45,219 bases of DNA from assembly GCA_019057795.1 (NCBI GenBank), contig JAHLWS010000015.1, positions 1 to 45,219 of the forward strand. Reading direction: 5' to 3'. Positions within the stretch are counted from its first letter, which is position 1; each line of letters begins with the position of its first letter. This document shows positions 4,215 through 6,777 of this stretch, piece after piece. Position numbers and translations under genes: made by a program. The notes beneath the pieces were generated by a model. It had not been told where the DNA came from. It saw nothing but the letters and a program-made list of their open reading frames with translations, and made no database searches. Source of the DNA: Promethearchaeota archaeon (GTDB lineage: Archaea; Asgardarchaeota; Lokiarchaeia; Sigyniarchaeales; SOKP01).

Positions 4215-5171
4215 ATGGCTATTCAAATAAATAAAATGATTTTCCAGGGGATTCTCAATGCGCTAATGTACATTGCTTTACCGTTAATTATCTTTGAATT
4301 AATCTCAATGATTGCACCTATGACATTTAGTCAAGAATTCAAAATTACCATAATCATTATTGGAATTATTGGTACTTTTTTTGCCATATTAAGGTATGCT
4401 TTTCCCAAAGACACTTCTGCGAATCGTCTTATGACGTTTGGTTCTACAATATACTCTGGGATTTACGTGTTTTATATTTTCGGGGGTTTTACGACCGGAG
4501 TACAATTGGGGACATATTCAATAAATTTACCTGCGCTTCAAGTATTTTTAGGTATACAAATCATAGCTTGGTTGTTATTAGGTTCATATGGGATTAAGGC
4601 ATTGCAATACTTAATTGAAGCAATAGAATTACGAAAAAATAAAGAATATCGTGTAAAATTTAAACTTAGTCATATTTTTAAAGTATTAGGTACGATGTTA
4701 AGTCTTATCACATTTGGTTATCTTGGTAGCATTGGTTATAGCGGAATGAATCTCGGTTTTAATTTTCACGACACATATCCAATAGGATGGGATGACGGCG
4801 GTACACTTCTTGATCTAAGCGACGATAATATTAATGTCACGTTTACTTTTGATCTCGACAACCAAGGATTTTACGCTATTTATGATGTTTATATCGACGC
4901 AGAATTTCATACAGTGGATAGCGCGAATGAATCAGCTCTCCCTGTAGGAGTTAAAGTAGGAGAATCATTTGATACCTATTTTAGTACGTTTCATTCCTCC
5001 ACAAATAATATCAATAATAACATAACAATTATTATAGATCCAGCTTATATAGAGGGATTAGCTACTACAGATGCAACTTTAGCGCTTAAAATCTCATTTT
5101 CTACGTACTATGCCGCAATCCTCATTAATTTGAATGCAACTGTAAATATTCCGTGGGCTCACTTAATTTAA
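4215..5171 (+). CDS. Hypothetical membrane protein (about 5 TM plus a beta-rich acidic C-terminal domain)
   Basis: 318-aa ORF with hydrophobic segments in the N-terminal 175 aa. No family recognised. Confidence 0.75.
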   Translation: MAIQINKMIFQGILNALMYIALPLIIFELISMIAPMTFSQEFKITIIIIGIIGTFFAILRYAFPKDTSANRLMTFGSTIYSGIYVFYIFGGFTTGVQLGTYSINLPALQVFLGIQIIAWLLLGSYGIKALQYLIEAIELRKNKEYRVKFKLSHIFKVLGTMLSLITFGYLGSIGYSGMNLGFNFHDTYPIGWDDGGTLLDLSDDNINVTFTFDLDNQGFYAIYDVYIDAEFHTVDSANESALPVGVKVGESFDTYFSTFHSSTNNINNNITIIIDPAYIEGLATTDATLALKISFSTYYAAILINLNATVNIPWAHLI

Positions 5172-5305
5172 CTTCTAAAAATTCTTCTTTCTTTTTTTAT
5201 TTTCAAGTTATAATTTCTCATCAAAGTATAAGATAACAGCATCTTTGAGTTACTTAATAATTTATATCCAATTACTTTAAATTTGAAATCACTCAATTTT
5301 TTAAT

Positions 5306-5818
5306 ATGAACGACGACGAACCGCCAAGACCTAGTGGATTACCAACGGGTTCTAAAGCGCCATTATTTGACACTAAGGATATTTATGGAAACGAACTCAG
5401 CTTAAAAAAACTACTTGAAGTCTATAACGGAGTGTTAATTGATTTCTTTAGAGGAAACTGGTGAAGTCATTGCAAAAAACATTTAACGCTACTAACCGAA
5501 AATATATCTGAATTTGAGAAAAGGAATATTAAACTTATGTCAATAGCAAGCGATAGCGAAAGACTTTTAAAAAAATTCAAGGAAGAAAATAATTTTGCAG
5601 TAGATATGATATCTGATCGCGGAGCAAAGATTGCCAAGGATTACGATGTTTACTGGTTTGCTCCCGGTGGAGGAGGGACTATGAATATCAAACAAGCGGT
5701 ACCGAGCAAATTTCTAATAAACAAGGACGGAAAGATTATTTGGACTTATATTGGTAAAGATAAGACTGATAGGCCTTCAATAAAGATGATGACAGATATA
5801 ATTGACGAAAAAATATAG
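5306..5818 (+). CDS. Selenoprotein: AhpC/TSA (redoxin) peroxiredoxin-like protein with UxxC motif, 170 aa
   Basis: ATG 5306: MNDDEPPRPSGLPTGSKAPLFDTKDIYGNELSLKKLLEVYNGVLIDFFRGNW-TGA(5462-5464)-SHCKKHL..., in frame with track ORF 5537-5818. The TGA sits at the catalytic Cys of the FxRGxWCPxC motif, and a SECIS follows the stop. Confidence 0.93.
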
Positions 5819-5824
5819 AATCCC

Positions 5825-5875
5825 GTAAGGATGACTCGTGTGTAAAAACTATAGACGCATGACGACGAACCTTGC
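5825..5875 (+). promoter_or_regulatory. SECIS element (eukaryote-like/lokiarchaeal type) in the 3' UTR
   Basis: Helix 1 GUAAGG/CCUUGC; core AUGAC/CGAC (tandem G.A/A.G); helix 2 UCGUGUGU/ACGCAUGA; apical loop starting AAAAA. Confidence 0.88.
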
Positions 5876-5955
5876 AAGGTTTTACGGGATATTACTTCTT
5901 TTTTTTAGATTTTTAAGATTAAAATAAAATGATATAGAATGTATTAAATGAATTA

Positions 5956-6777
5956 TTAATAGGTGTAGAACCCCTTACCAGATTTCCTTCCTAATTCGCC
6001 ATTATCTACCATTTCTTTAAGAGCTTTTGGCGGCTTATCGTTTGGGTCTCCGCTTTCGTTATAGTAAGACATCTCGATATCCCAAACTACATCTAACCCA
6101 ACTTGGTCCATCAAAGTAAAAGGGCCGTGTCCCATCCCAGTGTAAATCTTCCACGCTTGATCAACTACTTCAAAATCAGCGTGTCCACCCGCCCATATTT
6201 TCAAGCTTTCTTTTTTAATTGCGCGCCATATTCGATTAAATACAAAACCAAAGCATTCTTTTTTAACAATTAATGGCGTTATATCTATACTTTCAACCCA
6301 ATTCTTTCCTTTTTGAAAAGTATCGTCGCTCGTTCCGCTCCCTCTCATTATATCTGCCATAGGAGATACTGTTAAATGGTAAAAGTGGATATTTAACACT
6401 TTATCTTTTCGTTTAACAGAGTCTTCAAGTTTGGATACTGGAATCGAGGAACTATTAGTCGCAATTATAGCATGTGGTGGCGCAAATTTGTCGATCTCAG
6501 AAAATATTTCTTTCTTCAAGTCCAATTTTTCTGGTATTGCTTCTATAATTAGATCTGCATCTTTTACAGCTTCCGCAATTGTGTCATGGAATGAAACATC
6601 TCCAGAAACCTTTTTTATCCTTTTTCTTCTCGCAATTTTTCTCGTGTATTTATCAAACCCTTCGGGATTTGCGTCGTACATTCGAATAGAATAATTCTTG
6701 TCCGCAGATTTTTCAACAATTTGCTTTCCCATGAAGCCTATTCCAATAATAGAAACAACTTTAATTTCATCAACCAT
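5956..6777 (-). CDS. 3-hydroxyacyl-CoA (3-hydroxybutyryl-CoA) dehydrogenase family
   Basis: GIGFMG, IIEAIPEKLDLK, ATNSSS, IHFY, GFVFNRI and LGRKSGKGFY. Confidence 0.92.
   Translation of the reverse strand: MVDEIKVVSIIGIGFMGKQIVEKSADKNYSIRMYDANPEGFDKYTRKIARRKRIKKVSGDVSFHDTIAEAVKDADLIIEAIPEKLDLKKEIFSEIDKFAPPHAIIATNSSSIPVSKLEDSVKRKDKVLNIHFYHLTVSPMADIMRGSGTSDDTFQKGKNWVESIDITPLIVKKECFGFVFNRIWRAIKKESLKIWAGGHADFEVVDQAWKIYTGMGHGPFTLMDQVGLDVVWDIEMSYYNESGDPNDKPPKALKEMVDNGELGRKSGKGFYTY

Follow-up and report, generated by a model that had tools for sequence, protein, structure and literature searches.

Does the TGA codon at positions 5462–5464 end translation, or is it decoded as selenocysteine (Sec), and if so through which signal? 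We addressed this question in the window, that is, the whole stretch of 45,219 nucleotides that was analyzed, and in related genomes. A frame runs from ATG 5306 to TAG 5816–5818, and TGA 5462–5464 is its single interruption (FFRGNW-U-SHC), the read-through translation around it being ...DFFRGNW-U-SHCKKH.... Calling of open reading frames (ORFs) under Table 11 cut the gene into ORFs of 52 and 93 amino acids (aa). Pfam AhpC-TSA (PF00578) matched residues 15–146 (4e-24), so that the match spans the TGA. The initial annotation had described the 93-aa ORF as the tail of a 170-aa redoxin-fold protein, and the single frame and the AhpC-TSA match that crosses the TGA bear this out. Cys56 is the sole Cys among the 170 residues. 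The features of the gene are as follows.

5306..5818, plus strand: putative PrxL selenoprotein gene (Prx-like, most likely a thiol:disulfide oxidoreductase), 170 codons and a TAG stop
5462..5464, plus strand: in-frame UGA, candidate selenocysteine U53, with which the U-S-H-C redox box begins
5471..5473, plus strand: TGC encoding Cys56, the resolving position of the redox box

Upstream of the gene lies a 318-aa multi-pass membrane protein (window 4215–5171, plus strand), and downstream a convergent 273-aa ORF (window 5956–6777, minus strand). With these neighbors, the RNA element described below and the U-run behind it fill a convergent intergenic gap of ~137 nt.

Scanning of species-representative genomes yielded 73 related loci, nearly all of them labeled Promethearchaeota/Promethearchaeia (formerly Lokiarchaeia), and position 5462 was covered in 72. 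The matches came via the pattern KQA[VI]PSKFL; the other pattern requires TGG at codon 53 and cannot match TGA, and the locus search was therefore blind to this codon. Codon 53 was TGA in all 72 loci that cover the position. Three codons further on, 60 of the 72 carried Cys and 12 a second TGA (UxxU), and USHC was the most frequent redox motif. Orthologues down to 43% identity had the TGA at the same codon and kept the N-terminal 52 codons in frame. A tblastn search of the host genome found no PrxL paralogue or Cys form. One orthologue, with 85% identity, the TGA and the 3'-UTR element, is on DATKTW010000172.1, a contig assigned to a ‘Candidatus Nanopelagicaceae bacterium’ MAG, most likely through mis-binning of Lokiarchaeial sequence.

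In the protein records, the ‘full-length’ database homologues had W at the U53 column, as could arise if short contigs were translated with a genetic code in which TGA means Trp. The remaining homologues were 93–117-aa C-terminal fragments, annotated as redoxin proteins of Lokiarchaeota. One of the database matches came from the LCGC14 marine sediment metagenome, which we take to be the Loki's Castle core. Standard gene callers either break Asgard selenoprotein genes apart or translate them with code 4, and in the case of PrxL the public annotations are thus wrong in most genomes. Independent cold-seep and marine-sediment assemblies held no variant at 5462–5464; TGT and TGC, which according to the initial annotation would have argued against recoding, were looked for in them and not found. 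A contig from an RNA library spans 5361–5786 and is identical at 5462–5464; it could be DNA carry-over, and it gives a weak indication that PrxL is transcribed across the UGA.

The AlphaFold2 model of the protein has a pLDDT of 90.7, and a helix begins at residue 54. Foldseek returned Bcp4 (3hjp) as the best PDB match, with a TM score of 0.84, and Bcp4 and AhpE were the closest structures (TM about 0.8). In the alignment to BCP/PrxQ, C56 falls at the peroxidatic Cys, U53 at the Thr, Q130 at the Arg and R49 at the Pro. A true peroxiredoxin of this class has a Cys activated by the conserved Pro, Thr and Arg, and all three are replaced here. W-U-S-H-C-K aligned residue by residue with WCGHCK of protein disulfide isomerases (PDI) and with WCKPC of ResA. 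Cys or TGA had been anticipated at residue 53; the orthologues have TGA throughout, and the column corresponds to the N-terminal Cys of CxxC in PDI and ResA. With Sec at the nucleophilic position of a CxxC-like box and the peroxiredoxin Pro, Thr and Arg replaced, CxxC-like rather than peroxidatic chemistry is to be expected. Judged by these alignments, PrxL is most likely not a true peroxiredoxin but an oxidoreductase of the thiol:disulfide type, which would act through a selenenylsulfide on a predicted substrate of that kind. No member of the PrxL family had been characterized at the time of its description (PMC4989117).

The region behind the stop codon contains the following elements.

5820..5827, plus strand: 5' strand of the closing (lower) helix of the proposed SECIS three-way junction, pairing with 5883–5890
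5831..5834, plus strand: AUGA, which forms the SECIS core on the 5' side (tandem G.A quartet, predicted kink-turn type)
5835..5863, plus strand: SECIS helix 2 (5835–5843 with 5855–5863) and the 11-nt apical loop 5844–5854 (AAAAACUAUAG)
5864..5865, plus strand: GA, which completes the SECIS core on the 3' side; the next base, C5866, is nearly invariant
5867..5882, plus strand: accessory mini-hairpin (GAACCU-UGCA-AGGUUU), located 3' of the core
5883..5890, plus strand: 3' strand of the closing helix, pairing with 5820–5827
5896..5906, plus strand: U-rich tract (TTCTTTTTTTT), from its sequence a likely archaeal transcription terminator

Helix 2 has 9 positions, namely 8 Watson-Crick or GU pairs and a C.C at the base. 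The element folded with a minimum free energy of -22.4 kcal/mol (z = -2.76). An AUGA..GA core with an 8-bp upper helix and an A-rich apical loop had been proposed in the initial annotation, and all three are present at 5831–5865. The hairpin does lie in the 3'-UTR as claimed there, but not with its start 7 nt after the stop: the AUGA begins 12 nt past the TAG and the closing helix 2 nt after it. The distance from the UGA, given as about 360 nt, measured 369 nt to the AUGA, and the conserved structure extends to 5890 rather than ending at 5875. Rfam cmscan of 5200–6000, with E up to 10, returned no SECIS family; its matches were two snoRNAs, both below threshold. In most orthologues the element is followed by T-runs.

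We found the arrangement ATGA/9/11–12/9/GA directly after the stop codon in 58 of 67 orthologues (9/11 in 51, 9/12 in 7). Six others use the UGA of the AUGA as their stop codon, and one more is a variant with a 12-nt loop, which brings the count to 65/67. The coding sequence and the SECIS thus overlap in those six orthologues, and the VhuU-like gene on contig C60 of the host genome likewise has the UGA of AUGA as its stop codon. In an ungapped alignment of 49 distinct elements, which had been selected for ATGA..GA and at least 7 pairs, the AUGA, three loop A's (A16–A18), the last loop G (G24) and the GA were all invariant. Across the same selected set, 90% of the helix 2 cells were paired, with 123 double-sided changes; none of 500 shuffles reached as high a covariation and no slid register came close. 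The base pair of helix 2 was unpaired in 25 of the 49 elements. RNAalifold recorded compensatory changes in 8/8 helix 2 pairs. Covariation in helix 2 is strong.

The end coordinate of 5875 implied a helix 1 directly adjoining the core. Such a simple helix was tried and rejected: it has 6 bp in the window but occurs in 14 of 57 relatives, fewer than among shuffles, and is therefore not conserved. RNAalifold on a MAFFT alignment of the extended element recovered helix 2 only; the flanks were misaligned, and the junction was therefore tested by an anchored search against shuffles. The strict three-way pattern of closing helix and side hairpin was present in 48 of 57 elements, compared with 13.3 ± 2.8 (maximum 21) when the 3' flank was dinucleotide-shuffled, a figure that overstates the case because orthologues are not independent. 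In the related elements the side hairpin has 4–6 bp and begins 1–2 nt after GA-C, and its stems comprise 34 distinct sequences. The paralogous elements of the host genome are better evidence for the three-way junction than this shuffle figure: the accessory hairpin stands behind all ten SECIS matches described below, with unrelated stem sequences. Published lokiSECIS models consist of the core, the upper stem and the loop, and the main texts of PMC4989117 and PMC11227280 have no side hairpin.

The initial annotation had held that missing Sec machinery would tell against a selenoprotein. tRNA-Sec, SelD, PSTK, SepSecS and EFSec/SelB are all present in the host genome. SepSecS scored 484 bits, over the cut-off, and two selD genes, each with one in-frame TGA, were also over the cut-off. 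A PSTK-like kinase had selen_PSTK as its best family at 143 bits, below the curated NCBIfam cut-off, and an archaeal SelB of the EF-Tu family matched selB at 234 bits, likewise below that cut-off, and Pfam aSelB_III. The tRNA-Sec(UCA) gene is at contig C73:91758-91910 (plus strand), directly upstream of SepSecS, with aSelB ~3 kb away. It was seen in a permissive cmscan near SepSecS, at 28 bits in Rfam; RF01852 on the whole genome returned ordinary tRNAs only, and ARAGORN did not call a tRNA-Sec in the host genome, whether or not introns were searched for. It missed the gene on account of two inserts: the 31-nt T-loop insert that has been published for Lokiarchaeota tRNA-Sec and an apparent second one of ~30 nt near the D arm. 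Once both inserts had been taken out, ARAGORN called tRNA-SeC with an 8–9-bp acceptor stem.

We also searched the host genome for the same RNA element. A loose SECIS pattern gave 102 matches, compared with 76 in the reversed genome, and, being noisy, was replaced by a strict one. The strict motif had 10 matches in the 4.95-Mb genome and none in the reversed genome or in three block-shuffled genomes, and all ten sit behind frames with an in-frame TGA. Four of them follow pairs of HdrA-like and FlpD/MvhD genes with in-frame TGAs, one belongs to the PrxL gene itself, and one lies behind the NiFeSe hydrogenase large subunit (VhuA) and a VhuU-like peptide, FDCULSCAAH. The SECIS of the VhuU-like gene reads AUGA..AA, as published for VhuU. 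A covariance model was scanned against the genome and scored 150 of 10536 candidates. The initial annotation had proposed such a scan, and the model built from the hairpin led to further candidate selenoprotein genes, namely hdrA-mvhD pairs, vhuU and a zinc-ribbon protein. Strict matches at C26:53929-54164 (plus), C63:23698-23732 (minus) and C78:176805-176839 (plus) accompany small uncharacterized frames with in-frame TGAs; these comprise a single-pass membrane protein of 65 aa that contains GGG-U-L-C, a zinc-ribbon protein whose frame has several TGAs (..HG-U-T-U-VLC..) and a 158-aa frame with G-C-U-U.

The second-best match to the SECIS model among the 150 scored candidates (42.5 bits; contig C24, 23574–23608, minus strand) lies outside the window, in the following locus.

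Contig C24:23574-23765, minus strand: candidate Sec-ending zinc-ribbon ORF and its SECIS

Upstream of this SECIS is a 36-codon ORF, MIFCLKCKTKTIGTEEGYYYCKVCKKFARFFTLRFK, followed by TGA and then TAA, with the SECIS ~45 nt further on. Its layout is CxxC-x13-CxxC ... RFK, and the product would have 37 residues if the TGA encodes a terminal Sec. Of 151 genomes in the order, 54 carry the mini-protein, and these all belong to the same family. All 30 loci that were fetched end in ..FK-TGA-stop, and 25 of them have a strict SECIS 39–48 nt on, with covarying stems. Among ten further, weaker matches, the five ..KC-stop forms all lacked a SECIS and the five TGA-ending forms all had one. Sec and Cys forms paired in this way are what usually distinguishes a true selenoprotein family. 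No Pfam family matched the mini-protein above threshold, and it is not among the seven Asgard selenoprotein families in PMC11227280. On the strength of its sequence pattern, we regard it as a candidate for a new family of archaeal selenoproteins that end in Sec. Scanning for the SECIS first brings up small selenoproteins that escape homology-based surveys.

It seems to us reasonably probable that the UGA-recoding signal is a three-armed, possibly k-junction-like RNA that stands behind unrelated selenoprotein genes, and that its model uncovers families missing from published Asgard lists, chiefly the 37-residue Sec-ending zinc-ribbon protein. The accessory hairpin and closing helix would then refine the model of an RNA that is thought to be ancestral to the eukaryotic SECIS.

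Several other readings of the locus were weighed. Table 11 yields two ORFs and the public annotations hold C-terminal fragments only, as they would if a nonsense mutation had split a pseudogene in two, or if the TGA came from faulty assembly. Yet the codon falls exactly at the redox Cys column and is TGA in 72/72 orthologues, over a range of divergence in which the N-terminal 52 codons have stayed in frame, and the independent metagenome contigs agree at 5462–5464; we regard a pseudogene or assembly fault as exceedingly improbable. The W found at the U53 position of database homologues could alternatively mean that TGA is read genome-wide as a standard amino acid (Trp or Gly), without selenocysteine. 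This is scarcely credible in a genome in which TGA ends 257 of the 1988 frames of at least 300 codons, most of the long TAA/TAG-delimited frames are without TGA, in-frame TGAs cluster in known selenoprotein families with the SECIS motif behind each, and the Sec pathway is complete.

A further doubt concerns the hairpin rather than the codon. With a U-run behind it, the structure might be a mere terminator or mRNA-stability element, the UGA being read through or reassigned to Cys independently of any SECIS. A plain terminator would need neither an invariant core nor a covarying stem, whereas here the stem covaries, and the AUGA/GA core, the stem and loop lengths, the AAAAA and the terminal loop G vary little or not at all. 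The motif was found only behind genes with an in-frame TGA, and within the zinc-ribbon family it accompanied all five TGA forms that were compared and none of the five Cys forms. Taken together, these observations make the terminator explanation very unlikely.

We therefore favor, with a probability of about 0.93, the reading that 5306–5818 is a PrxL selenoprotein gene of Lokiarchaeia/Promethearchaeia in which UGA 5462 is decoded as Sec via a 3'-UTR lokiSECIS. The gene structure, the conservation of the TGA, the covarying SECIS and the Sec machinery of the host genome all agree with it. The product would be a 170-residue, BCP/AhpE-like thioredoxin-fold protein with the redox center U53-S-H-C56, and the UGA would be decoded by Sec-tRNA(Sec) delivered by archaeal SelB/EFSec, an insertion that we infer, together with a SECIS-binding protein. 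The signal would be the lokiSECIS 369 nt downstream, with an AUGA/GA core of predicted kink-turn geometry, a 9-position helix and an 11-nt A-rich loop, probably closed by a lower helix that bears the side hairpin.

The locus can be compared with several described systems. Mariotti et al. 2016 (PMC4989117) reported a Lokiarchaeal PrxL family with UxxC or UxxU, no other Cys and no Prx signature, in which the USHC motif predominates. According to Huang et al. 2024 (PMC11227280), 43.2% of the Asgard archaea that use Sec have Prx-like selenoproteins, along with type I eSECIS-like elements, and the PrxL family is also named in a 2026 review. The window gene shares with the published PrxL (PMC4989117, PMC11227280) the AhpC/TSA fold, the UxxC box with Sec first and UxxU in some relatives, the lack of Cys outside the box and of the Prx T-x-x-C signature, the Lokiarchaeial host, and a monocistronic gene with a lokiSECIS right after the stop. 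It differs in nothing of substance, the match to PrxL.1/PrxL.2 being by published description.

The published lokiSECIS (PMC4989117) has an AUGA, a 9-bp stem, an 11-nt loop and GA after the stem, and adjoins the stop codon; the first five loop bases are mostly A, and the last is an ultraconserved G usually preceded by A. Every one of these features is present in the window element, which has AUGA, a 9-position stem, the 11-nt loop AAAAA...AG and GA(C), within 12 nt of the stop. As a difference, the element and its relatives add the distal closing helix and the side hairpin between the GA and that helix. The eukaryotic type I SECIS is alike in its 3'-UTR location far from the UGA, its AUGA/GA non-Watson-Crick core and its unpaired apical A's, but the window helix 2, at 9 positions, is shorter than the eukaryotic stem, the lower part is a three-way junction rather than a simple helix 1, and there is no Rfam SECIS match. 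No SBP2 homologue is known in Lokiarchaeota (PMC4989117). The euryarchaeal SECIS of Methanococcus and Methanopyrus shares the 3'-UTR location and a pathway of archaeal SelB, PSTK and SepSecS; its GC-rich two-stem structure with a GAA/A bulge was not seen in the window, where the core is AUGA/GA.

Among enzymes, BCP/PrxQ and AhpE share the fold with the window protein (TM 0.84 to Bcp4) and the peroxidatic Cys of BCP falls at C56, whereas Sec stands in place of the catalytic Thr of BCP/PrxQ, Gln130 in place of the Arg and Arg49 in place of the Pro. With the CxxC oxidoreductases ResA and PDI the likeness lies in W-U-S-H-C-K, which matches WCGHCK and WCKPC. The initial annotation's central claim, namely that an Asgard archaeon encodes here a redoxin-fold selenoprotein with a UGA-recoded UxxC box and an AUGA/GA SECIS in the 3'-UTR, and that gene callers split it, is supported by the present analysis. 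Its suggestion that USHC and the short helix 2 mark a distinct Asgard subfamily is not: both USHC and the 9-position helix 2 are the published norm of PrxL and lokiSECIS, and thus no new subfamily is indicated. The gene is of an already known kind, the Lokiarchaeial Prx-like selenoprotein with a lokiSECIS.
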